Made by a program: the position numbers and the translations under genes
Assembly: GCA_963851325.1 (NCBI GenBank)
Contig: CAWKOR010000002.1
Location: 167,960-231,959, forward strand
Source of the DNA: an uncultured delta proteobacterium
GTDB taxonomy: Bacteria > Desulfobacterota > Binatia > Binatales > Binataceae
Reading direction: 5' to 3'
Length of the DNA stretch: 64,000 nucleotides
The notes under the pieces: model-generated
Databases searched by the model: none
Told to the model about the DNA's origin: nothing
The model's input: the letters and a program-made list of their open reading frames with translations, nothing else
Shown: piece after piece, positions 1,164 through 60,028 of the stretch
How positions within the stretch are numbered: position 1 is the stretch's first letter
Layout: the number at the start of each line of letters is the position of its first letter

Positions 1164-2468
1164 TCAGTCGTCCCGGATGGGCGTCCCTTCGGGCGCGATT
1201 TCGCATAGCGCGGCCATGAACTTGCCACGCTTGGTCCGCGGGATCTCGTTCACCCTTTCGAGGTCCACGGTAACTCCTCCGCCAATCCCATCCGCAATGT
1301 TTTTCTTGAGTGTTGCCGCGACTTCCAGAGCAAGCGGCTCATCGCGAACAAACCGCACGATGAAGTGATCGAGCCCGCGCTGAACGAGTTGAAGTTGCCG
1401 GACTTCGGTCAGAGTTTCGAGAAAGTCATAGATCCGCCATGGCAAATAGAGCTCACCGGTCTTGAGGCGAAACAGGTTTATCGACCGGCCGACTACCTTT
1501 CCGATGAGCGGCAGGGTGCGGCCGCATGAGCAGTCGCCTTCCACTGCCATCGCATAGTCACCGAAATCGTAGCGAATCAGCGGTGCCAGGTAGTTCTCGA
1601 GTGTGGTGACCACCACGCGGCCCAGCTCCCCCGCTTTTACCGGTCTGCCCTCGTCATCAAGCAGCTCGAGGATCAGGTGCTCGGCGTTCAAGTGATAGCT
1701 ACCGACCGGACATTGCCACGCGGGAAACAGTTCAGTGGTACCGTAGTTATCCGCGATTTCCACCCCTAGCATCTGCCGGGTCCGCTTGCGCAAGGAGTCG
1801 TCGAGAACCTCGCCGCCGGTGAAAACTTTGCGCAGTGCCGGAAGCCGCGGCTCCTCTTTTCCGAACATCGTCAGCAGCGCGTCCAGGTTCGAGGGCAAGG
1901 TATAGATGAAGTGCGGGTTCATTTTGCGCAACCAGGCAATCTGCTTGCTGAAGTCTTCGGTATGCGACATGAACTGCGAACCCAGCATGAAGCGGCTGCT
2001 GCTAAGCTGCGAATCCGGGGACGGCGGCTCGGCGCGCAGGCCCAGCGCCCACGCGGTACGATGGGTAGGGAGCCATCCGTTCCCCACCAGGTAACGCGCG
2101 CGGGCAGCATTACGGCCGCTTTGATGATTCCGGTCGAACAGCAGTTCCACGCTTTGGCCGGTCGTCCCGGACGATTTCGCCTTTATGTAGTACGTGTCCG
2201 GCGGATAAATCCCGCGCACCGAGCGGCTGATTTCCTCAATCTCCGGGCGCTGGAGAAGCGGAAGTTTGGTCAGTTCCGCGACCGACGGCAGGGTGCCGAA
2301 GCGGCGCGCATAAAATGGGATCCGCATCGCGGCCCGGAAGGTCTTGGCGAGGCGATCCCGCCGAAGAGCTTCAAGACGATCAGGATCCCAGCGCTGCGAA
2401 CGCGTCAGTTGCAGATAGCGTGGCGCGGCCTCCAACAATACCAAGAGCGATGTATCGAGTATCGGCAA
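1164..2468 (-). CDS. phenylacetate-CoA ligase / coenzyme F390 synthetase-like adenylate-forming enzyme
   Basis: 434 aa. AMP-binding-type SSGTTG motif, YGTTE, and a PaaK-like length and C-terminal domain. Paralogue of 51829..53109. Confidence 0.8.
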   Translation of the reverse strand: MPILDTSLLVLLEAAPRYLQLTRSQRWDPDRLEALRRDRLAKTFRAAMRIPFYARRFGTLPSVAELTKLPLLQRPEIEEISRSVRGIYPPDTYYIKAKSSGTTGQSVELLFDRNHQSGRNAARARYLVGNGWLPTHRTAWALGLRAEPPSPDSQLSSSRFMLGSQFMSHTEDFSKQIAWLRKMNPHFIYTLPSNLDALLTMFGKEEPRLPALRKVFTGGEVLDDSLRKRTRQMLGVEIADNYGTTELFPAWQCPVGSYHLNAEHLILELLDDEGRPVKAGELGRVVVTTLENYLAPLIRYDFGDYAMAVEGDCSCGRTLPLIGKVVGRSINLFRLKTGELYLPWRIYDFLETLTEVRQLQLVQRGLDHFIVRFVRDEPLALEVAATLKKNIADGIGGGVTVDLERVNEIPRTKRGKFMAALCEIAPEGTPIRDD

Positions 2469-2595
2469 GGGAGCATCACTAGCATCAGCCGAGATCGATT
2501 TCTAACCTCTTGGGACCTCGAGCGGCGAGGGATGGCGCGCGGCCGCGGGACGTGGCATGAGTCGGGGGGAAATTCGGTGATCGACCGGGGACGTC

Positions 2596-4194
2596 GTGGC
2601 CGCAACAACTCTTGTCGGCGAGCTTCAACTCGAGACGACCGCACCAACCCACAAATGGCTGGTCGCGATCGCCGTTATGCTCGGCACCGCTCTCGAAGTC
2701 CTCGACAACTCGATCATCAACGTCGCCCTGCCCCATTTGCAAGGTGCGTTTTCCGCCAGCGTCGACGAGATCGCGTGGGTGCTGACCAGCTATCTGGTCG
2801 CCAACGGCATCATGATCCCGATGTCGGGCTGGATCGCTTCCAGGTTCGGACGCAAACGCTACTTTCTGACTTCGGTGTTTATTTTTGTGGGAGCTTCAGC
2901 ATTGTGTGGCGCCGCGCAATCGCTCGATCAGATGGTGGCGTTTCGGCTCATCCAGGGCGCAGCCGGTGCGGCCATGATTCCATCTTCGCAAGCGATCCTG
3001 ATGGAGACGTTTCCGCCCGAGCAGCAACAGATGGCGATGGCGATATGGGGGATGGGCTTGATGGTTGCGCCAATCGCCGGGCCGACCCTGGGCGGTTGGA
3101 TCACCGACAACTGGAACTGGCGCTGGAATTTTTATATCAATCTGCCACTTGGCACGATTGCATTTCTGATGGTCTCCGCGTTCGTCCACGATCCGCCCTT
3201 CATGCACGAGCGACGCACCCGCGGCGGCAAGGTCGATTACGTGGGAATCATGCTGCTGGTGCTGAGCGTTGGATTGCTTCAGATCGTGCTCGATCGCGGA
3301 CAGCGCGCGGACTGGTTCGAATCGGCGTGGGTGGTGTCGGCAACCACCATTTCGGCGCTCTGTTTCCTCCTGCTGATCGGGCGCGAGTTGACCTTCTCCG
3401 AACCGATTCTGGATCTGCGAATTTTCAAGGAAACCACGTTCATCGTTGCGGTGGTGCTCACGATCGCGATGAGCTTCGTGCTGTTCGGCAGCATCCTGCT
3501 CAATCCGCTCTTCCTCCAGGAACTGCTGGGATATAGCGCGTGGAAGACCGGGCTGGTGCAGGCGCCGCTGGGGCTATGTTCCGGAACCTCGATGCTCATG
3601 ACCGGGCAGTTGTCGCGCCTCGGCCTGAACACACGGCCGCTGGTAGGTCTCGGCTTTGCCCTGGTCGCATTCGGGGCATGGCGAATGGCGGGGATGAACT
3701 TGCAGGTCAGCCTGATGGCGGTGCTGAAGCGCAACGTCCTGATGTCGTTCGGGTTCGGGATGATTTTCCCCAATACCTCGGCGGCGGCGCTCTCGTGCGT
3801 GTCCCGCGAGCGCATCGGATATGCGGCCAGCTTGTTCAACATGCTGCGCAACACCGGCGCCGCGATCGGAATCGCCTTCATGACCAACTCGCTGATTAGC
3901 CACCAGCAGATTCATCAGGCGCATCTGGTCGAGCACTTCTCGATCTTCGATGCGTGGAAGTTTGGTCGAATGATGCCGCCCGGGGCGGCGCGCGCGTTCA
4001 CCTATCTTCCCGAGATGTCACAAGCATCTCCGCATGGCCTCGCGCTGCTGTATGGACTGGTTCGGCAGCAGGCGATGATGCTGGCGTTCAACGACATCTA
4101 TCGGACCATCGCCATCGTGCTGATTCCCCTGATCCCGCTCTTCGTGTTTCTGCCCAGCAGCAAGACCAACACGAGCGCCCCCTCGGCTCACTGA
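2596..4194 (+). CDS. MFS transporter, DHA2 (EmrB/QacA-like, 14-TMS) drug:H+ antiporter family
   Basis: 532 aa, highly hydrophobic. N-terminal LDNSIINVALPHLQ and GWIASRFGRKR motifs typical of the EmrB family. Confidence 0.85.
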   Translation: MAATTLVGELQLETTAPTHKWLVAIAVMLGTALEVLDNSIINVALPHLQGAFSASVDEIAWVLTSYLVANGIMIPMSGWIASRFGRKRYFLTSVFIFVGASALCGAAQSLDQMVAFRLIQGAAGAAMIPSSQAILMETFPPEQQQMAMAIWGMGLMVAPIAGPTLGGWITDNWNWRWNFYINLPLGTIAFLMVSAFVHDPPFMHERRTRGGKVDYVGIMLLVLSVGLLQIVLDRGQRADWFESAWVVSATTISALCFLLLIGRELTFSEPILDLRIFKETTFIVAVVLTIAMSFVLFGSILLNPLFLQELLGYSAWKTGLVQAPLGLCSGTSMLMTGQLSRLGLNTRPLVGLGFALVAFGAWRMAGMNLQVSLMAVLKRNVLMSFGFGMIFPNTSAAALSCVSRERIGYAASLFNMLRNTGAAIGIAFMTNSLISHQQIHQAHLVEHFSIFDAWKFGRMMPPGAARAFTYLPEMSQASPHGLALLYGLVRQQAMMLAFNDIYRTIAIVLIPLIPLFVFLPSSKTNTSAPSAH

Positions 4195-7848: not shown

Positions 7849-8436
7849 TTAGATCGCGGCGCGTTTATGCGGAACTGCCTGCGGCTTCGGCCTGAGCAGT
7901 CGCAGCGCGCCAACATAGTAATCGATGCCCGACCACACGCTCAGGCCCATCGCGATCCAGAGGATGAACATTCCGGCGGCAAAAAAATCGATGTGGAAAT
8001 AAGTGTAGCGGATCAGCAACCCCTGAATGGCGATGGACTGCAGCACCATCTTGTACTTTCCCAGCTCCTCGGCCGCCATCACCACCCCTTCCGCCGCTGC
8101 GATTGCGCGCAGACCGGTAACCATGATTTCGCGAATCACCAACACTGCGACAATCCACGCCGGCACCCGCGGCAACTGCGGCGTTCCCGCCAACATGATG
8201 AGCGCTGAAATCACCACCACCTTGTCGGCTAGCGGATCGAGGAACTTCCCCAGGGTCGTCCCGGAGCCGTAATTGCGCGCAATGTACCCGTCAAGAAAAT
8301 CGGTGATGGTCGCGAGAAAAAACACCGTGGCAGCCAGCGCCGCGGCGATCGGACCGGGAAGCAACAGCAGATACACCAGCAGCGGTGCTGTTGCGATTCT
8401 GCATAAGGTCAGGATGTTGGGAGTTGTCCAGGCCAC
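7849..8436 (-). CDS. pgsA: CDP-diacylglycerol--glycerol-3-phosphate 3-phosphatidyltransferase
   Basis: CDP-alcohol phosphatidyltransferase motif DFLDGYIAR..G..GKFLDPLADK. 195 aa, multi-TM. Confidence 0.9.
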   Translation of the reverse strand: MAWTTPNILTLCRIATAPLLVYLLLLPGPIAAALAATVFFLATITDFLDGYIARNYGSGTTLGKFLDPLADKVVVISALIMLAGTPQLPRVPAWIVAVLVIREIMVTGLRAIAAAEGVVMAAEELGKYKMVLQSIAIQGLLIRYTYFHIDFFAAGMFILWIAMGLSVWSGIDYYVGALRLLRPKPQAVPHKRAAI

Positions 8437-8587
8437 GCGAAAAATCCGCTCTCCGTCGCGACTAGATGCGATTCCCCCGCCCTTGGTCTCACACTATGGC
8501 AATCGAGTGTGCGGGGCAAACTACCATGCCCAACTGCGCACGTGATGCTTTCCGGCCGCGACATCAGGTAACCTGATCACCATAAAG

Positions 8588-10201
8588 ATGAAACCGTCCT
8601 CGCGCTTCGACTCAGATTTCCTGGTTATCGGCGGCGGCATCGCAGGCCTGATGTTCGCTCTCCGCGCCTCCGAGGTCGGCACCGTCACGGTCCTGACCAA
8701 GGCCGCGAGCTCCGAGGCCAATACCGCCTATGCGCAGGGCGGTATCGCCAGCGTATGGAGCGTCGCCGATTCCTTTGAATCCCACATCGACGACACGCTC
8801 AAGGCGGGGGCCGGGTTATGCGACCGCACCGCCGTCGAAACCATTGTGCGCGAAGGTCCGGCCGCGGTTCGCGAACTGATTCGACTCGGCACCCAGTTTA
8901 CCCGCATCGAAGCCGGCGGCGAGGACGAATACGACCTTGGGCGCGAGGGCGGTCATAGCCATCGCCGTGTGCTGCATGCGCAGGATCTCACTGGCCGTGA
9001 AATCATGCGCGCGCTCGGCGCGGCTGCGTCTGCGCGCGAGAACATCCGCGTGCTCGAGAATCACGTCGCGGTGAACCTGCTGATCAAAAAGGACCGTACC
9101 ACCGGCAAGCCCAAGTCATGCTGGGGCGTATACGCGCTCGACCGCAACACCAATCAGGTGAACAAAATCGTCACGCGCGCCACCATGCTGGCGACCGGCG
9201 GCGCGGGCAAGGTTTATCTCTATACCACCAATCCCGATATCGCCTCGGGCGACGGCGTTGCGATGGCGTATCGAGCGGGCGCGCCGATCGGGAACATGGA
9301 GTTCATCCAATTCCACCCAACCTGCCTGTATCATCCAGCCGCCAAGTCGTTTTTGATTTCCGAAGCGCTGCGCGGCGAGGGCGCGATTTTACGGCTACCC
9401 GACGGCACTCCCTTCATGAAGAAATACGACTCGGCTGGGGAACTGGCGCCCCGCGATATCGTTGCACGCGCTATCGATGCCGAGATGAAGCGGCTTGGGC
9501 TCGATTGCGTTTACCTCGACCTCAGCCACAAGCCGGTCGACTTCATTCGCAATCGATTTCCCAACATCCACGCGCGATGCTTGAGCTTCGGCATCGACAT
9601 GACTCGGCAGCCGATTCCGGTGGTGCCGGCGGCGCACTATATGTGCGGCGGTGTAATGACCGATCTCAACGCGCGCACGCCCATCGAACGACTTTATGCG
9701 GCGGGCGAAGTGGCGATGACGGGTTTGCATGGCGCCAACCGACTCGCTTCCAACTCGCTGCTGGAAGCCGCGGTGATGGGCCATCGTGGCGCGATGGCGG
9801 CGCATCGCGAGATTGAGGACTCGCCGGACGGCACGGTGCCGGACTTTGCCGAATGGGAGACCGGGCGCGCCATCAAGAGCGAGGAGCGCGTGATGGTCAC
9901 GCAGAGTTGGGACGAAATCCGGCGCATGATGTGGAACTATGTCGGCATCGTGCGCAGCGATCGTCGCCTCGCACGCGCAGAGAGCCGGCTCGCGCTACTG
10001 AATGAGGAAATCCACAGTTACTACTGGGATTACCTGCTCGACTCGGACCTCATCGAATTGCGCAATCTGGTGAACGTTGCCGAGCTGATTGTGCGTGCGG
10101 CCTCGATGCGCAAGGAATCGCGCGGGCTGAACTACAACCTCGATCATTTGGAGCGCGACGACGCCCATTGGCTGCATCCCACGGTCATCACGCACCATTA
10201 A
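8588..10201 (+). CDS. nadB: L-aspartate oxidase
   Basis: 537 aa. FAD-binding N-terminus DFLVIGGGIAGL, succinate-DH/fumarate-reductase flavoprotein-like core, and typical NadB length and C-terminus. Confidence 0.9.
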   Translation: MKPSSRFDSDFLVIGGGIAGLMFALRASEVGTVTVLTKAASSEANTAYAQGGIASVWSVADSFESHIDDTLKAGAGLCDRTAVETIVREGPAAVRELIRLGTQFTRIEAGGEDEYDLGREGGHSHRRVLHAQDLTGREIMRALGAAASARENIRVLENHVAVNLLIKKDRTTGKPKSCWGVYALDRNTNQVNKIVTRATMLATGGAGKVYLYTTNPDIASGDGVAMAYRAGAPIGNMEFIQFHPTCLYHPAAKSFLISEALRGEGAILRLPDGTPFMKKYDSAGELAPRDIVARAIDAEMKRLGLDCVYLDLSHKPVDFIRNRFPNIHARCLSFGIDMTRQPIPVVPAAHYMCGGVMTDLNARTPIERLYAAGEVAMTGLHGANRLASNSLLEAAVMGHRGAMAAHREIEDSPDGTVPDFAEWETGRAIKSEERVMVTQSWDEIRRMMWNYVGIVRSDRRLARAESRLALLNEEIHSYYWDYLLDSDLIELRNLVNVAELIVRAASMRKESRGLNYNLDHLERDDAHWLHPTVITHH

Positions 10202-13531: not shown

Positions 13532-14548
13532 CTAACCGCGCGTCGCGAATTTCGGATCTTCGCCGGCTTCATCGCCGTGAACCTTGCGCACCAGGTAGGT
13601 CGGACGGCGGCGAACTTCAAGATAGATACGCCCGATGTATTCGCCGATCAGCGCGAGGGCGAAGAAGATGAATCCTATGAATCCAAACAGGACCGTGAAC
13701 AGCAGCCACAGCGCGCCTTCTTGCTGCGGTCCGTAGATCAGGCGGTGCAGCGCCAGCACCGTCACCAGCAACCCATCGAGGAACAGGATTCCGATTCCCA
13801 TCAGGCTGAGAATCTGGATCGGAATCATCGAGAAACCCGTGATCAGGTTGAGGCTCAGCGTCGCGAGGCGTAGCAGGTTGTACTTTGAATCGCCCGCCGC
13901 GCGCTCGGCATGGCCCACTGGAATCTCGGCCACCCGCTTGGCGAACGAATTGGCCAGCGCCGGCACGAAGGCCGCCTTCTCATCGCATTCGACCACGGTA
14001 TCGACGATGTGCCTGCGATACGCGCGCAGCATGCATCCGTAGTCATGCATCGGAACGCCGACGATCGCGGAGGTGAGCTTGTTGTGAAACCGCGAGGCGA
14101 TGCGGCGAAAGGCCTGGTCCTGGCGTTCCTCGCGCCATCCGCCGACCACATCGTTGCCGTCGTCGATCGCCTGGATGAGCCGCGGGATCTCCTCGGGAGG
14201 ATTTTGCAGATCGGCATCCAGCGTCACGATGATGTCGCCCTTGGCCTGCTTGAACCCCGCCAGGATCGCCGAATGTTGTCCGAAGTTGCGCGCCAGCTCG
14301 ACGACCCGCACATGCCCAGGCGCTTCTTCGCGGAGTGCTTTCAGCATGCTGAGGGAGTCATCCGCCGAGCCGTCATCGACGAAGACTACTTCCCATGGCC
14401 GGTTCATCTGCTTCATGACGGCCGCGAGGCGAGCCCACAAATCCGGAATGGTCGCGGCCTCGTTGTAGACCGGGATCACCAACGAAATCACTTCCGGCGC
14501 GACCTGTCGGCTATCATGAATCGGAAGAATGTTTCCTTGACTGCTCAA
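13532..14548 (-). CDS. arnC: undecaprenyl-phosphate 4-deoxy-4-formamido-L-arabinose transferase (GT2)
   Basis: VIPVYNE..DDGS.D.S, LDADLQNPPEEIPRL and GDYGCMLRAYRRHIVD are near-colinear with E. coli ArnC. Its stop abuts the formyltransferase start. Confidence 0.88.
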   Translation of the reverse strand: MSSQGNILPIHDSRQVAPEVISLVIPVYNEAATIPDLWARLAAVMKQMNRPWEVVFVDDGSADDSLSMLKALREEAPGHVRVVELARNFGQHSAILAGFKQAKGDIIVTLDADLQNPPEEIPRLIQAIDDGNDVVGGWREERQDQAFRRIASRFHNKLTSAIVGVPMHDYGCMLRAYRRHIVDTVVECDEKAAFVPALANSFAKRVAEIPVGHAERAAGDSKYNLLRLATLSLNLITGFSMIPIQILSLMGIGILFLDGLLVTVLALHRLIYGPQQEGALWLLFTVLFGFIGFIFFALALIGEYIGRIYLEVRRRPTYLVRKVHGDEAGEDPKFATRG

Positions 14549-14702
14549 AGCGACGCCCCAACATGCCTACACGTGCTCACCAGCATTGTTACAGACCCAT
14601 TCGGCCTGCAAAAGATGCCCCCCAGCGTGTAACTTTTACATTCCGCACCATAGACAGGCTCCCGGTCAAATAACTACTCCTGCGGCAGCGTCCAACATTA
14701 TT

Positions 14703-15776
14703 ATGGGGCTCCAGCGCACCACCTGCTCTCTCCTGCTCCCATTGTGCATCCTCCTTGTTGCCGGATGTGCCTCACATCAGAACTTTGAGTCGCGGCCTTT
14801 CTACCAGAAAGAAATCGCGGTCGAGACCCACGGCAAGAAGACCCTGTTCGACAGGATTGTCGAGGTCGATCCCGGCGGCCTCGATGTCGATTTGGCGAGC
14901 GACTATGTCAAACGTCCGCCCGCAACCATCGCGGTGCTGCCGTTCACCGATCGCGGCTCCGCGCAATACACCGTCGACAAGATTCCGCTCAGCTTCCGCA
15001 ACAAGGAAGAGCGCGATCAGTGGGCATGGACCGACGCGCAGCGATTGCGCAAGTCGTTCATCGGATATCTCTCGCAGCGCGAATTTATTGTGGTCAATCC
15101 AATCGCGGTGGATGCGGTGCTGCAATCGCACGGAATCAACAACGCCGAGGATCTCGAGAAAGTCAGCGTCCTGACGCTGGGCAAATGGTTTCAGTGCGAT
15201 GCCGTGATCTACGGAACCGTCGATCATTATGAGGCGTACTACCTGGCGCTGGTTTCCGGCTACGAAGTCGGGGTGACCTCGCGCATGGTCTCGACCCACG
15301 ATGGCGAAACCTTGATGCGCAGTCATGGCAGCCGCTTCTCGCTCAATGTTCTGCCCGCGATGTCGATGGAAGACATCCTGATAAATTCCGCCGAATCGCT
15401 GCTCCAGCTCCGCGACGTCGTGCTGGCGCGCGCCGAGGAAGAGGTCGCGCGCGAGTTGGTGATCCGCATCCCACGATCCGAGACATTGCGCACCCGCATC
15501 GCCACCGAAGCGGTCCGGCGTGCGAGGGAATCGGAGGAGATCGAAGAGGATGTGGCAGCGCCTCGTCCGCCGTCGGTTGATGCGATGCAGGCCAACGTCT
15601 GGCCGCCTCCATCCGCGAACGAGATCAGCTTTCTGCAAGCGGCCGCGATAGGCGACGACGCGGCATACGACCAGCATGCTGTTGACGAGGGCAGCCGCCA
15701 CCTTAAGACTGCATCGTCATGGCAAATCCCCAGCGGCCAGCGCTCCGTCTCGTTTTCATCGCAATATCAGCGCTGA
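14703..15776 (+). CDS. putative lipoprotein
   Basis: Internal ATG at 14703 gives a signal peptide with lipobox LLVAGC. The upstream part of track ORF 14586 has no signal. The 3' end overlaps the ArnT-like gene by 58 nt. Confidence 0.6.
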   Translation: MGLQRTTCSLLLPLCILLVAGCASHQNFESRPFYQKEIAVETHGKKTLFDRIVEVDPGGLDVDLASDYVKRPPATIAVLPFTDRGSAQYTVDKIPLSFRNKEERDQWAWTDAQRLRKSFIGYLSQREFIVVNPIAVDAVLQSHGINNAEDLEKVSVLTLGKWFQCDAVIYGTVDHYEAYYLALVSGYEVGVTSRMVSTHDGETLMRSHGSRFSLNVLPAMSMEDILINSAESLLQLRDVVLARAEEEVARELVIRIPRSETLRTRIATEAVRRARESEEIEEDVAAPRPPSVDAMQANVWPPPSANEISFLQAAAIGDDAAYDQHAVDEGSRHLKTASSWQIPSGQRSVSFSSQYQR

Positions 15777-47479: not shown

Positions 47480-47586
47480 ATAACGTGATGCGCGTGCTCT
47501 CTTTCGGCGTATGTCTCCCTGAGCCGAAAGATGACCGCGATTTTTCGCCGCGATTTTTCGCACAGTTCCACCGGAGGAGCTTCTCC

Positions 47587-47871
47587 ATGGCAGACGGCAA
47601 CAATTCGGGAGTCGTATATTTAATCGTCAATCGCGCCGAGGTTGTATCCGAAGGATGCAGCGCGTGCGGACAGGGCTTCGCCTCCGAACCTGCAGGCGCA
47701 CAAGCACTCAGCGCCGCGGTCGGAGCCGCAAACACCACCTATATGTTTTGCGCGGGATGCGGCGAGTCGATCATGTCGCATCTGCAGAACGACGCGGCGC
47801 GTCAGCATTACGGATGGGACTGGACGGTTCCACTGCGCGGTAAACCGCTGGACGGCAACGGCACTCATTAG
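47587..47871 (+). CDS. 94-aa CxxC...CxxC zinc-ribbon-like protein (copy 1 of a triplicated domain)
   Basis: ATG 47587 preceded by GGAGGAG. LIVNRAEVVSEGCSACGQ...FCAGCGESIMSHL...YGWDWTVPL. By my manual count, 44 of 75 aligned residues are identical to the N-terminus of 48177..49040. Confidence 0.65.
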   Translation: MADGNNSGVVYLIVNRAEVVSEGCSACGQGFASEPAGAQALSAAVGAANTTYMFCAGCGESIMSHLQNDAARQHYGWDWTVPLRGKPLDGNGTH

Positions 47872-47947
47872 GCACGTGGACAACTGCTCGCGACCCGAGA
47901 CCCATCACGACCTAACGCCGCTCGGCTCCGAGGTCGCGTAAAGCCTG

Positions 47948-48238
47948 ATGTTCTGGCGATTTGCATTCCGCGAGGAGACCGGTCCGCGGGTCCTGCTGGT
48001 AAATACCGCCGAGATCGTCGAATCGATATGCGCGGCCTGTGGTGCACGCCTCGCCTCCGATCCCAAGGGCGAATCGATCCTCGTCGCAGCGTCGAGCGGC
48101 AACGGAAATCGCCACCAGTGCTACTGCGCGGACTGTAGCGATGAGCGATGGGTTCCGACCCTCGCAGGCCGCGCGCTCAATCGCTACGCGCTGGACTGGG
48201 CGATGCCGTTGCGTCAATCGCTTGAGTCGGCTGGTTGA
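47948..48238 (+). CDS. 96-aa diverged copy of the same zinc-ribbon-like domain (copy 2; possibly decaying)
   Basis: LLVNTAEIVESICAACG...CYCADCSDE...RYALDWAMPL keeps four Cys and the DW..PL end. Weak RBS. The 3' end overlaps the convergent gene by 62 nt. Confidence 0.45.
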   Translation: MFWRFAFREETGPRVLLVNTAEIVESICAACGARLASDPKGESILVAASSGNGNRHQCYCADCSDERWVPTLAGRALNRYALDWAMPLRQSLESAG

Positions 48239-49040
48239 GGGCGGCAGACGTCTTCGACGCCCAGGTCGCGCTCGAAAGCTCATCCTCGGAGAACAACAGC
48301 AGCGCTTCTTTGGTCTGGACATCTTCCTTGATAAGCGCTGCGAACTCGCAGATCGGTTTGATCGATTCCTGCGGATCTCCGACGCTGCGGGCGAAGCGCA
48401 GGAGCTTTTCGCGGTCCGGAATGGTCGGGTTGCCCAGGTACTCCTTGAATCCGCGACCTTCCTCGGGCGCGACCTCGTGCGTCTCGCCACCCAGTTCGAG
48501 CAGCCGCTGGTCGAAGATCCTGGCGTGATAGGTCTCGCGCTCCGCGATCATGCGGATACCCAGCCTGAGGGAATCGGTAGTGCATACCGCGGCCCACGCA
48601 GCAAATGCTTCGCCACCGTTGGCCTCGCCGGCTCGGATTTTATGCAGGAAGCTGAGGATTGCGGCGCGCTCGGACTCGTAGACCCTGCCGAATGCGTGGA
48701 AGCTGGCACCGTTACTTGCGGGCGATGCCCCCTGGCGCGCGGTCGTCGCTTCGAGGGAGGCGTGGCCGTTCGGGTTCGCTTGGGCTGAATACAGCGGAAG
48801 CACCCAATCCCATCCATAGCGCTGACGCACCGCCTCGGCCTCGAGATGGCTCATGATGGTATCGCCGCAGGCCGCACAGAACACGCAGGTTTTGCCGCCC
48901 GGCGACAGCTCGACGCTGAGCGCCCGCGTGCCCGCCGGATCCCAGGTAAAATTCTGCCCACATGCCCGGCATCCTTCGGACACGATTTCGGCGCGATTGA
49001 CCACCAGATGCTCGACCCCTGCCGGCTTGCTGTGTTCCAT
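48177..49040 (-). CDS. 287-aa fusion: N-terminal zinc-ribbon-like domain (copy 3) + C-terminal ferritin-like/ExxH four-helix-type domain
   Basis: N-terminus LVVNRAEIVSEGCRACGQ..FCAACGDTIMSHL..YGWDWVLPL. C-terminus FGRVYESERAA...MIAERETYHARIF...EDELS. The C-domain is paralogous to 60466..61119. RBS GGAG. Confidence 0.7.
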   Translation of the reverse strand: MEHSKPAGVEHLVVNRAEIVSEGCRACGQNFTWDPAGTRALSVELSPGGKTCVFCAACGDTIMSHLEAEAVRQRYGWDWVLPLYSAQANPNGHASLEATTARQGASPASNGASFHAFGRVYESERAAILSFLHKIRAGEANGGEAFAAWAAVCTTDSLRLGIRMIAERETYHARIFDQRLLELGGETHEVAPEEGRGFKEYLGNPTIPDREKLLRFARSVGDPQESIKPICEFAALIKEDVQTKEALLLFSEDELSSATWASKTSAALNQPTQAIDATASPSPARSD

Positions 49041-49133: not shown

Positions 49134-49949
49134 CTACGGAGTCGTATCTTCCTTCAAACTACAGGTTGTCCCGTCGGCGGTCTGGGTGCACGTGCAGAGG
49201 CATTCGTTCAAAACCGCGGGCGGTGGTCCGTCGAGCCTCAGTGCCAGGAAAGCCCCACTTCCGGTCGGGGATCCGACGTGCAGAGAAGCTCCATTGCTGG
49301 TGGGGTTGGGAACGCTGCAAGCGGAGCATGCATTTGCGTCACAGCGGCTCCCAGGGGCTGCCGATGGATCGTACGGCCCAAAAAACTGGTATCCCAAAGC
49401 ATCTGAGCTACCCGGCGTCGCGCCGGTCGAGACGGGGCACGAGCACATGATCTCACGATTGCGTAGTCGGCCCTCGAAGCCTGGAAACCTCTTGCCCCTG
49501 CTGCTGTTGAAGCATAGACCACCATCGCATTGGCCATATGCAACCGGCGCCGGCACTCCGGTTCCCGCATTGTCTGTTCCAGGACAGGTATAGGCTGCGA
49601 GTGTTCCGCCCTTTTTAGCTTCAGGAGGCAGACTGAACGTACTCACCATGTAGCCGTTGCGCTTACCTTCCTGGTTGACGTCGCAAACGTTTTGCTCGCC
49701 CGCCGGTCCGGTGAAGCTCAACTGAAGGCTGATGCTATCGCCGCGTTTTACATCGCACTTGCAATAGGCGACGCCGTCATAGACGAAACAGCTCGCGTCG
49801 GCACAAAGTGCATAGCGTTGATGGGAGCAAATCACGAATGGAGGCTCGGGATCGGCCGCCGGAACGGCGTCAAAACCGAATGCCACAATGGCGGTTAAAA
49901 GTTGGATGGCGACCACGAACGGCGCGGCTTCGAGCAACCTGCGAATCAT
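49134..49949 (-). CDS. Cys-rich secreted protein (about 20 Cys in 271 aa)
   Basis: N-terminal signal-like hydrophobic segment. Many CxC, CxxC and CxxxC pairs (CKCD, CDGGLC, CSCP, CSACS, CLCTC). RBS AGGGGGGA. Lies 93 nt upstream of 48177..49040 on the same strand. Confidence 0.65.
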   Translation of the reverse strand: MIRRLLEAAPFVVAIQLLTAIVAFGFDAVPAADPEPPFVICSHQRYALCADASCFVYDGVAYCKCDVKRGDSISLQLSFTGPAGEQNVCDVNQEGKRNGYMVSTFSLPPEAKKGGTLAAYTCPGTDNAGTGVPAPVAYGQCDGGLCFNSSRGKRFPGFEGRLRNREIMCSCPVSTGATPGSSDALGYQFFGPYDPSAAPGSRCDANACSACSVPNPTSNGASLHVGSPTGSGAFLALRLDGPPPAVLNECLCTCTQTADGTTCSLKEDTTP

Positions 49950-59614: not shown

Positions 59615-60028
59615 CTAAAGCATTAGCACCTTGAGTCCCGGGATTCGCGGAAAACTTCGTGAGTCGAGCGTGGCAACCCGATAGCCGCGAGCGAGTGCGG
59701 TTGCGCCTATCATCAGATCTCGCTCGAGATCTCGCTCGGCGATTTGCGTTCCGGCGCGGACCAGCTGCGCCCATAGTGCGGCATAAACTCGTGCCTCCCG
59801 AAGATCGAAAGGTAACACCGGCAGCATCTCCAACATCGCATCGAGAAACGCTTCTCGACGGATTCGCTGCGCGGTGTTGTGCGCCCGATGAAGGCCGTGG
59901 AGGAGTTCTGCCGCGGTAATTGCCGAGAGAGCGAAGTCTTCGTCCGCGTCGCTTCGGAAAAACTCGTGGATCTCGAGAGCGCCTCTTTCAGCGGCGATTA
60001 AAACGCTGGAATCGATTAACGTCGCCAT
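59615..60028 (-). CDS. vapC: type II toxin-antitoxin toxin, PIN domain (VapC family)
   Basis: MATLIDSSVLI.., ..TAAELLHG.. and ..VATLDSRSF give the PIN acidic residues. Overlaps the upstream antitoxin gene by 13 nt. Confidence 0.85.
   Translation of the reverse strand: MATLIDSSVLIAAERGALEIHEFFRSDADEDFALSAITAAELLHGLHRAHNTAQRIRREAFLDAMLEMLPVLPFDLREARVYAALWAQLVRAGTQIAERDLERDLMIGATALARGYRVATLDSRSFPRIPGLKVLML

Follow-up and report, generated by a model that had tools for sequence, protein, structure and literature searches.

A Cys4 module of putative zinc-ribbon type, free and fused to a ferritin-like domain, in a three-gene cassette of Binataceae

Why should three neighbouring genes carry the same small cysteine-rich module, and why should one of the three join it to a ferritin-like domain? 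This question is raised by a 64-kb stretch of contig CAWKOR010000002.1 (assembly GCA_963851325.1), which derives from an uncultured delta proteobacterium of the Binataceae and which we refer to in its full length as the window. Two adjacent genes on its plus strand, copy 1 and copy 2, encode stand-alone versions of a module with four cysteines (Cys4); the third gene, on the minus strand, encodes a fusion protein in which such a module precedes a helical domain (Table 1). An earlier note on this DNA, made from the sequence, had viewed the trio as a local triplication that forms a functional unit; its three open reading frames (ORFs) are all present where it had placed them. Our analysis describes an unnamed Cys4 family of the Binataceae, of putative zinc-ribbon type, and an unnamed ferritin-like family of the Binatia, linked to each other both by fusion and by a three-gene cassette.

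Our strongest evidence that the three proteins are functionally linked is that the content of the cassette is constant while its gene order and its neighbours vary. We compared the window with loci that contain genes of the module family or the ferritin-like family, designated here by L numbers. The complete trio is found at six of seven distinct fusion loci, in two gene orders and four neighbourhoods (Table 1), which supports the functional unit that the note had proposed. Copy 2-type genes, all of which start with MFWRF (L004, L009, L022, L032 and L033), are seen beside fusion genes only: not one of them occurs at the 18 distinct module loci that lack a fusion gene. The trio is a mobile, conserved cassette. 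Its presence in four neighbourhoods also means that the M20 amidohydrolase gene, which the note had linked to the trio, is an incidental neighbour: elsewhere, the cassette adjoins genes for a histidine kinase and response regulator, for CAP and BrkB, or for a beta-lactamase and GFA. We considered the M20 amidohydrolase, the GNAT protein and a 271-residue Cys-rich protein as further cassette members and rejected all three, as they are absent from L022, L032 and L033. In the window, copy 2 and the fusion gene run towards each other, and their 3' ends overlap by 62 nt (48177–48238); the overlap is 4 nt in L009, and the two ends are 4 nt apart in L022 and ~50 nt apart in L004.

The relationship among the three modules was assessed by pairwise BLASTP. 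Copy 1 and the first 92 residues of the fusion protein share 48/92 identical residues (52%, E 7e-35), so the 44 of 75 counted by hand in the note was about right; copy 2 is more diverged, as the note had also observed, being 38% identical to the fusion (29/77, E 2e-11) and 37% identical to copy 1 (30/81, E 6e-15), yet it keeps all four Cys. Similarity that lies so far beyond chance points to three true paralogues, and a module profile run against every ORF of the window retrieved these three copies only. In a neighbour-joining tree, the copy 2 sequences form one clade, the fusions form another, and copy 1 groups with solo genes that are linked to gamma-glutamyltranspeptidase (GGT); two further clades consist of other solo genes. 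The three copies thus represent three separate paralogue clades of old standing, all of which have orthologues in other genomes, and we can therefore retain the paralogy in the note's triplication while discarding a recent local duplication. Evidence that these are real coding genes was derived from orthologues in four genomes (window, L004, L009 and L022), among which the ratio of nonsynonymous to synonymous substitution rates (dN/dS) across the three genes is 0.16–0.34 at dS 0.7–2.4 (0.18–0.25 for copy 1). Each gene is therefore under purifying selection and is not a chance ORF in DNA of 61% G+C.

The module itself is recognised by a common pattern, L(I/V)VNRAE(V/I)V..(G)CxxCG ... FCxxCG(D/E)xIM ... 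YxWDWxxPL, that extends over ~80 residues and in which the two knuckle motifs are spaced CxxCG-x27-CxxCG. The four Cys are retained in every full-length family member, and in 15 of 15 fusions; no sequence lacks C55 or C58, and a single one, which is truncated, lacks C24 and C27. Copy 2 retains the Y..DW..PL motif along with its four Cys, and the GESIMSH helix motif is absent from it. The proteins are acidic (isoelectric point 5.0 for copy 1, family median 5.7), which argues against nucleic-acid binding.

Does the module belong to a named family? Pfam-A and NCBIfam searches with the three copies yielded no model that reached its cut-off, the best scores being those for DUF6527 (16.1 bits; cut-off 23.6), the YgiT finger TIGR03831 (15.2 bits; cut-off 20.2) and GFA (14.5 bits; cut-off 24.3); TIGR03830 scored 13.4 bits (cut-off 61.8). 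When 30 diverse members were scanned singly, they too gave only sub-threshold matches: the Nudix N-terminal Zn ribbon in 16/30, DksA/TraR in 13/30 and MqsA in 6/30 (PF15731, best E 0.0061, all below 30 bits). Rubredoxin was matched neither by these 30 members at E ≤ 1 nor in profile searches of the PDB, in which two module alignments produced no significant match, but only generic C2H2, LIM or zinc-knuckle similarities. The PDB entries for MqsA, 3hi2 and 3ga8, came up at E 1.2–1.5 over the second knuckle and its helix, and there is a local resemblance between the module's FCxxCGESIM and the MqsA knuckle-helix. The note had not recognised the module as a named family, and neither do these databases: Pfam, NCBIfam and the PDB return sub-threshold, generic zinc-knuckle matches only.

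A view of the module's probable fold comes from an AlphaFold2 (AF2) model of the fusion protein, in which the module is predicted with a per-residue confidence (pLDDT) of 77–94. It has strands at residues 10–13, 18–20, 38–45, 50–55 and 75–83, and helices at 56–65 and 69–72. The first knuckle (C24, C27) comes after two short strands that form a beta-hairpin; a second beta-hairpin follows, and then the second knuckle (C55, C58), which is positioned at the N-terminus of a helix, while the last strand bears the WDW motif. The predicted layout is that of a metal-stabilised domain of the zinc-ribbon or treble-clef type, the metal being putative. The invariant Cys residues and the beta-rich scaffold of the fusion model would be consistent with membership of the generic Cys4 zinc ribbons, the model of a stand-alone copy being poor (see below).

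We turn to the domain that the fusion protein adds to its module. The AF2 model has a mean pLDDT of 82 overall, and exceeds 90 throughout a bundle of four helices (residues 124–152, 156–182, 209–236, which is interrupted, and 241–269). The best PDB matches obtained with Foldseek were Desulfovibrio bacterioferritin (1nf4), the Dps-like, bacterioferritin-type protein PA4880 (8w1e, 8w1d), Dps and further proteins of ferritin-like fold (probability 1.00, although E is only 1.6e-3 for 1nf4 and up to 5e-3; template-modelling score to the target 0.67 for 1nf4 to 0.79 for 8w1d). The resemblance to ferritin-like folds suggested in the note is borne out by this bundle and by the rank of 1nf4 and 8w1e at the top of the matches. 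Foldseek thus finds a ferritin-like fold; the complete ferroxidase centre (E18, E51, H54, E94, E127 and H130 in E. coli Bfr) is not present.

What kind of metal site, then, might this domain contain? In a profile alignment, IAEREAYHARIF..ELGGE falls onto the ExxH of bacterioferritin helix B, and residues E124, E139, E169, H172, D209, K212, D240, D253, E254, W149 and W260 are invariant in 120 homologues. The note had read two motifs here and had named conservation of the ExxH in homologues as a test: 'AERETYH' holds up, with E169 and H172 in 120/120, whereas in 'YESERAA' the conserved residue is E124 and not E122. Position +3 from E254, in helix D, is Thr in 64 of the homologues, Ser in 56 and His in none. 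There is consequently one ExxH only, its second counterpart being Exx(S/T) in 120/120, so that the canonical two-ExxH diiron site brought to mind by the note's reading is not supported. Alignment by hhalign to a single E. coli Bfr sequence had a probability below 1%, in a weak register that equates E254 with E127 and S257 with H130; with a single D. vulgaris rubrerythrin sequence, the probability was again below 1% and nothing meaningful emerged. No clear counterpart of the helix-C Glu of bacterioferritin (E94) was found, and E139 would be the helix-A ligand to judge only by its position in the helix.

Another key observation concerns the origin of the fusion. Among the matches listed in a search with the 287-residue protein, 14 further clusters of 264–288 residues cover 88–99% of the query and so share the architecture of the fusion; of the 120 homologues listed, more than 100 have a length of ~187–237 residues and match only the C-terminal ~165 residues, with 52–75% identity. 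The members of this second, canonical group that we read have MSRDFEFKQLLRAYRxGIISxxxFExEM as their N-terminus and share an NG-rich linker and the core; where sources name them, it is as 'hypothetical protein [Candidatus Binatus sp.]'. The canonical family matches no Pfam or NCBIfam model, apart from sub-threshold similarity to Rubrerythrin (PF02915, 13.7–16.5 bits against a cut-off of 22.8; E 0.012–0.086), and the fusion protein has no PF02915 match at E ≤ 1. One canonical paralogue is encoded in the window itself, outside the cassette: it has a helical N-terminus, NFEFKQLLRAFRTGIIDESTFEQEM, in place of the Cys4 module, and is 47% identical to the fusion's C-terminal domain. This protein illustrates what the fusion was derived from, namely a Binatia ferritin-like family whose short helical N-terminus is replaced in the fusion by the Cys4 module. 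The canonical N-terminus looks SHOCT-like, but we do not claim this relationship, as Pfam SHOCT gave no match at E ≤ 1.

We also noted that the canonical ferritin-like gene has a DUF4412 gene, in convergent orientation, directly downstream of it at three loci (L001 8757–9587, L028 6759–7583 and L030 6751–7563), and that a gene for LPG_synthase_TM is next in each case. Paralogous DUF4412 genes are located directly downstream of solo module genes in L012, L013, L014, L017 and L020, around 8339–8980. The occurrence of DUF4412 beside both families may be a coincidence or a further link between them.

How far does the module extend beyond the cassette? A word-indexed search identified 24 clusters of close relatives, and an exhaustive search of 1.84 billion representatives with the module profile identified 54 clusters at E ≤ 1e-3, 35 of them at E ≤ 1e-10. 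Among species-representative genomes, 19 of 19 matches are to Candidatus Binataceae or to soil metagenome-assembled genomes (MAGs) labelled 'uncultured delta proteobacterium', and several of these MAGs have two to four dispersed module paralogues. The module is thus a small family, found among genome assemblies in Binataceae only, which are uncultured bacteria of soils and wetlands. Outside the cassette, its solo genes have at least three conserved contexts: beside GGT, beside DUF4412 and aconitase subunits, and flanked by a luciferase-like monooxygenase on one side and by an HTH_17 gene plus an amine oxidase on the other. In other proteins, the module precedes a PadR winged helix (P0162; PF03551, E 2.7e-7), follows an alpha/beta-hydrolase (P0170), comes after a classic zinc ribbon (Zn_ribbon_3/DZR) at the N-terminus and an intervening linker, or is split by an insertion (P0190, P0193 and P0197). 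From such varied fusions the module would seem to be a promiscuous, adaptor-like domain.

Several features of the solo loci deserve description in their own right. At the GGT-linked loci, the 94-residue gene forms the end of an open frame of 227–241 residues (L006 7602–8285; L002 33–758; L011 7590–8285), the N-terminus of which is a classic zinc ribbon (Zn_ribbon_3, E 1.5e-5); since this long frame fits an architecture that has been called elsewhere (P0150, P0174, P0176 and P0226), the short gene calls there may be truncated. A conserved ATGTTCTGG upstream of the paralogues was considered as a remnant of the QWTRIE linker, and this idea was rejected: the long ORF of L006 holds both motifs separately. 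The 14-mer ATGTTYTGGMGAWT occurs exactly once per locus listed (Table 1), and in each case a module gene starts at it or shortly downstream. Its ATG is the sole start codon (MFWRF...) of copy 2-type genes; in many solo paralogues, an ATG with a strong GGGAGGAG Shine-Dalgarno sequence follows the 14-mer in the same frame, 13 codons further downstream; at copy 1 of the window it is degenerate (47551–47569) and has no ATG. The 14-mer could encode an alternative N-terminus, or it could be a cis-regulatory element that these genes have in common. In what we term type-A loci, a small convergent ORF of 68 residues adjoins the solo copies. Finally, the L006 contig, from a Binataceae MAG, contains three tandem 115-residue genes without a Pfam match (13678–14774), downstream of genes for a Rieske oxygenase and for a cyclase.

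Bearing all of these features in mind, we hypothesize, with a confidence that stops somewhat short of an even chance, that the module is a metal-stabilised, partner-binding unit for docking or oligomerisation. The four Cys would hold a structural metal, most likely Zn, and this metal site would make a small, beta-rich, knuckle-plus-helix domain for protein-protein docking or oligomerisation. The tethered copy would then provide a ferritin-like di-metal protein with a docking site, and the free paralogues, above all copy 2, would associate with the fusion through like-with-like contacts or by binding to the bundle, and would thereby build a small complex or modulate it. The ferritin-like domain itself probably coordinates one or two metal ions via E139, E169, H172 and E254, with D240, D253 or E124 as possible extra ligands, and probably handles iron or peroxide/oxygen chemistry at a non-canonical site. 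We favour docking because the module takes the place of a short amphipathic N-terminal helix in the fusion, because it is joined to unrelated partners (PadR, a hydrolase, zinc ribbons), because it is acidic, and because its weak similarities are to Zn fingers only, some of them partner-binding, and never to rubredoxin; the zinc domain of MqsA, for example, binds a partner protein. Copy 2 is singled out as the likeliest partner of the fusion since it occurs only with the fusion.

Some observations weigh against this proposal. Most free paralogues are far from any ferritin-like gene, and the module must therefore have roles that are independent of the ferritin-like protein. The fusion gene of L035 has no adjacent free copies; solo module genes are found on other contigs of the same MAG (L012 and L021). 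Copy 1 modelled alone by AF2, with an alignment of 26 sequences, reached a pLDDT of 48.6, which is unusable, and Foldseek found no structural neighbours for that model, only matches with E > 1, so the fold class of the module is taken from the fusion model alone. We found no RNA-seq runs that contain the locus; the DNA runs that do so are metagenomes of soil, rice paddies and wetlands.

The main rival is a redox partnership, which we regard as unlikely but as a contender to be taken seriously: a Cys4 site that holds Fe or Fe-S would pass electrons to the ferritin-like di-metal site, with the free copies as soluble shuttles, and the system would be an independent re-invention of rubredoxin/rubrerythrin or Bfd/bacterioferritin logic. 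A Cys4 domain N-terminal to a ferritin-like bundle does recall the 'reverse' rubrerythrins, rubrerythrin families likewise occur with and without a Cys4 domain, and the spacing in the module is within the range of the long-spaced type (PMC5114695); a small Cys4 partner encoded next to a ferritin-like gene is known from Bfd and BfrB (PMC7760384). The acidity of the module, the sub-threshold Rubrerythrin matches of the canonical members and the oxidoreductase genes beside some solo paralogues are compatible with the same idea. On the other hand, no rubredoxin or rubrerythrin model matches the module in 30 members even at E ≤ 1, and its five strands, ~80 residues and WDW motif are far from a rubredoxin of 45–54 residues; electron transfer is not needed to account for fusion to PadR, to a hydrolase or to classic Zn ribbons, a second His is missing from the di-metal site, and the hhalign comparisons with single sequences of rubrerythrin and bacterioferritin gave nothing meaningful. 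More doubtful still is an extended version of this idea, in which the Binatia would have independently built a redox system of three components: two Fe-binding Cys4 proteins, both free, would deliver electrons to the tethered copy on a ferritin-like enzyme with a one-His, carboxylate-rich di-metal site, as a functional analogue of rubredoxin/rubrerythrin or Bfd/bacterioferritin built from unrelated families, and the module would be reused as a redox or sensor plug-in on PadR regulators and hydrolases.

We consider it quite improbable that the module is a sensor, in which a Zn-thiolate thiol/redox or metal switch controls the attached domain and the free copies are small regulators or anti-regulators. 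The PadR-type fusion would suit such a role, as would the hybrid histidine kinase/response regulator genes upstream of module genes at six loci (cassette locus L022 included) and the common conserved 5' sequence of many dispersed paralogues, which is compatible with co-regulation; however, known redox-switch motifs such as the ZAS HxxxCxxC are absent from the module, and histidine kinases are so abundant that their adjacency may be due to chance. A nucleic-acid-binding zinc finger or an antitoxin similar to MqsA/YgiT is very improbable, even though the second knuckle and helix are weakly similar to MqsA/YgiT (the TIGR03831, 3hi2 and 3ga8 matches above) and the convergent 68-residue ORF at type-A loci could be viewed as the other half of a pair: every score is below its cut-off, the proteins are acidic and have no helix-turn-helix (HTH), no toxin family adjoins them, PADLOC gave no match at E ≤ 0.1 for the trio, the canonical paralogue or the Cys-rich neighbour, and the partner in the cassette is ferritin-like rather than a toxin. 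We give the least credence of all, next to none, to the idea that duplication has left one or both small ORFs behind as relics that are not translated. The sole start codon of copy 2 is not preceded by a clear Shine-Dalgarno sequence, and copy 2 is often missed by gene callers (there are only 4 called clusters, and the wrong frame is called in L004); against this, its dN/dS is 0.18–0.34 over dS 1–1.9 in four genomes, its four Cys and Y..DW..PL are kept in six genomes, and copy 1 has a strong Shine-Dalgarno sequence (Table 1).

The immediate surroundings of the trio can be described briefly. A scan of the window revealed no terminator-like hairpin between copy 2 and the fusion gene, a promoter and terminator scan around the cassette gave signal at or below the level of chance, and an Rfam search of the window found nothing. 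The Cys-rich protein, whose gene is the one directly upstream of the fusion gene, matches nothing in Pfam, NCBIfam or PADLOC and is not conserved beside the cassette at other loci. The canonical paralogue is flanked by a gene that we take, by eye from its sequence, to be VapC/PIN-like and by a gene for a secreted-looking protein.

Table 1. Coordinates of the genes, domains and sequence elements described here, with the arrangement of the fusion loci; positions without a locus number are those of the window.
Feature	Coordinates	Strand or gene order	Basis or context
Copy 1, stand-alone Cys4 module protein, 94 aa	47587..47871	+	ORF
Copy 1 motifs	CxxCG aa 24-28; CxxCG aa 55-59; YGWDWTVPL aa 75-83
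Copy 1 Shine-Dalgarno, strong GGAGGAG	47573-47579
Copy 2, diverged Cys4 module protein, 96 aa, N-terminus MFWRFA	47948..48238	+	ORF
Fusion protein, 287 aa	48177-49040	-	ORF
Fusion, N-terminal Cys4 module, aa 1-85	48786..49040	-	alignments and AF2 model
Fusion, linker, aa 86-110, low confidence	48711..48785	-	pLDDT <50 at residues 85-109; poorly conserved
Fusion, predicted ferritin-like four-helix-bundle domain, aa 111-272	48225..48710	-	AF2, Foldseek, conservation
Fusion, C-terminal tail and stop codon, unconserved	48177..48224	-	overlaps copy 2 3' end on opposite strand
Cys-rich protein, 271 aa, signal-peptide-like N-terminus	49134-49949	-	same strand as fusion gene
VapC/PIN-like gene (presumed)	59615-60028		flanks canonical paralogue
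Canonical ferritin-like paralogue, 217 aa	60466..61119	-	ferritin-domain profile match E 7e-59
Secreted-looking protein, 196 aa	61377-61967		flanks canonical paralogue
ATGTTYTGGMGAWT, window	47948-47961
ATGTTYTGGMGAWT, L004	9155-9168
ATGTTYTGGMGAWT, L009	8347-8360
ATGTTYTGGMGAWT, L015, L016, L018, L019	7962-7975
ATGTTYTGGMGAWT, L021	2348-2361
ATGTTYTGGMGAWT, L027	11322-11335
ATGTTYTGGMGAWT, L032	5829-5842
ATGTTYTGGMGAWT, L033	4532-4545
Cassette, window, L004, L009		copy 1 >, copy 2 >, < fusion	YqeY-GNAT-M20 neighbourhood
Cassette, L022		copy 1 >, fusion >, < copy 2	after hybrid histidine kinase and response regulator
Cassette, L032		copy 1 >, fusion >, < copy 2	among CAP, BrkB, DUF218 genes
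Cassette, L033		copy 1 >, fusion >, < copy 2	near beta-lactamase and GFA genes
Fusion locus L035 (JBGPMZ010000247.1)	2225-3037	fusion without adjacent free copies	between CapK-like AMP-binding gene and M20 gene

Soils, wetlands and rice paddies harbour Binatia in abundance, and these bacteria have been discussed as methylotrophs and as hydrocarbon degraders; to our knowledge, none has ever been cultured. For this group, the present work defines two lineage-specific families that have so far been filed under 'hypothetical protein': a Cys4 module with multiple paralogues in several of the genomes, and a ferritin-like family with a non-canonical metal site. Should the module prove to be a docking or electron-transfer partner, it would represent a new solution for the handling of iron or oxidants, and also a handle for the annotation of dozens of orphan genes in Binatia genomes; should it be a structural zinc finger only, we would have a useful yet ordinary definition of a domain family. 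Nothing known is overturned, and a clear, testable partner hypothesis is offered.

It is instructive to compare the locus with systems that it resembles. The closest structural matches of the C-terminal domain are bacterioferritin and Dps-type proteins (1nf4, 8w1e/8w1d PA4880), to which the helix-B ExxH...ELGGE aligns; in contrast, identity is 16–20%, the helix-D His is replaced by S/T in the fusion family, the helix-C Glu has no clear counterpart, and the fusion bundle has a long loop and an extra helix between helices B and C. Bfd carries a [2Fe-2S] cluster, shows a C-x-C...C-x2-C pattern and folds as a helix-turn-helix. We detected no sequence similarity to it, and one copy of the module is covalently fused here, but in both cases a small Cys4 protein that could act as a partner is encoded beside a ferritin-like protein, Bfd being the partner of BfrB (PMC7760384). 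MqsA/YgiT, the Nudix N-terminal ribbon and DksA/TraR share with the module two CxxC(G) knuckles ~27–30 residues apart in small metal-stabilised domains; the module scores below the cut-offs of all these families and has neither an HTH nor a toxin partner, and its N-terminal L(I/V)VNRAE strand and C-terminal YxWDWxxPL motif are peculiar to it. A rubredoxin has ~45–54 residues, a CxxCG...CPxCG pattern and a conserved aromatic core, whereas the module is larger (~80 residues), with extra strands and the WDW motif. Rubrerythrins exist with a C-terminal, an N-terminal ('reverse') or no Cys4 domain, and a long-spaced rubredoxin-like domain has 27–32 residues between the CxxC pairs (PMC5114695), a range that includes the 27 of the fusion; the N-terminal Cys4 domain on a bundle, the relatives without one and the free small Cys4 proteins encoded nearby complete the likeness, while the fusion family is outside PF02915 and has one ExxH where rubrerythrin has two. 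A defining feature is missing each time, and the proteins described here are not members of the rubrerythrin, bacterioferritin, rubredoxin or MqsA/YgiT families: at most, they work like them.

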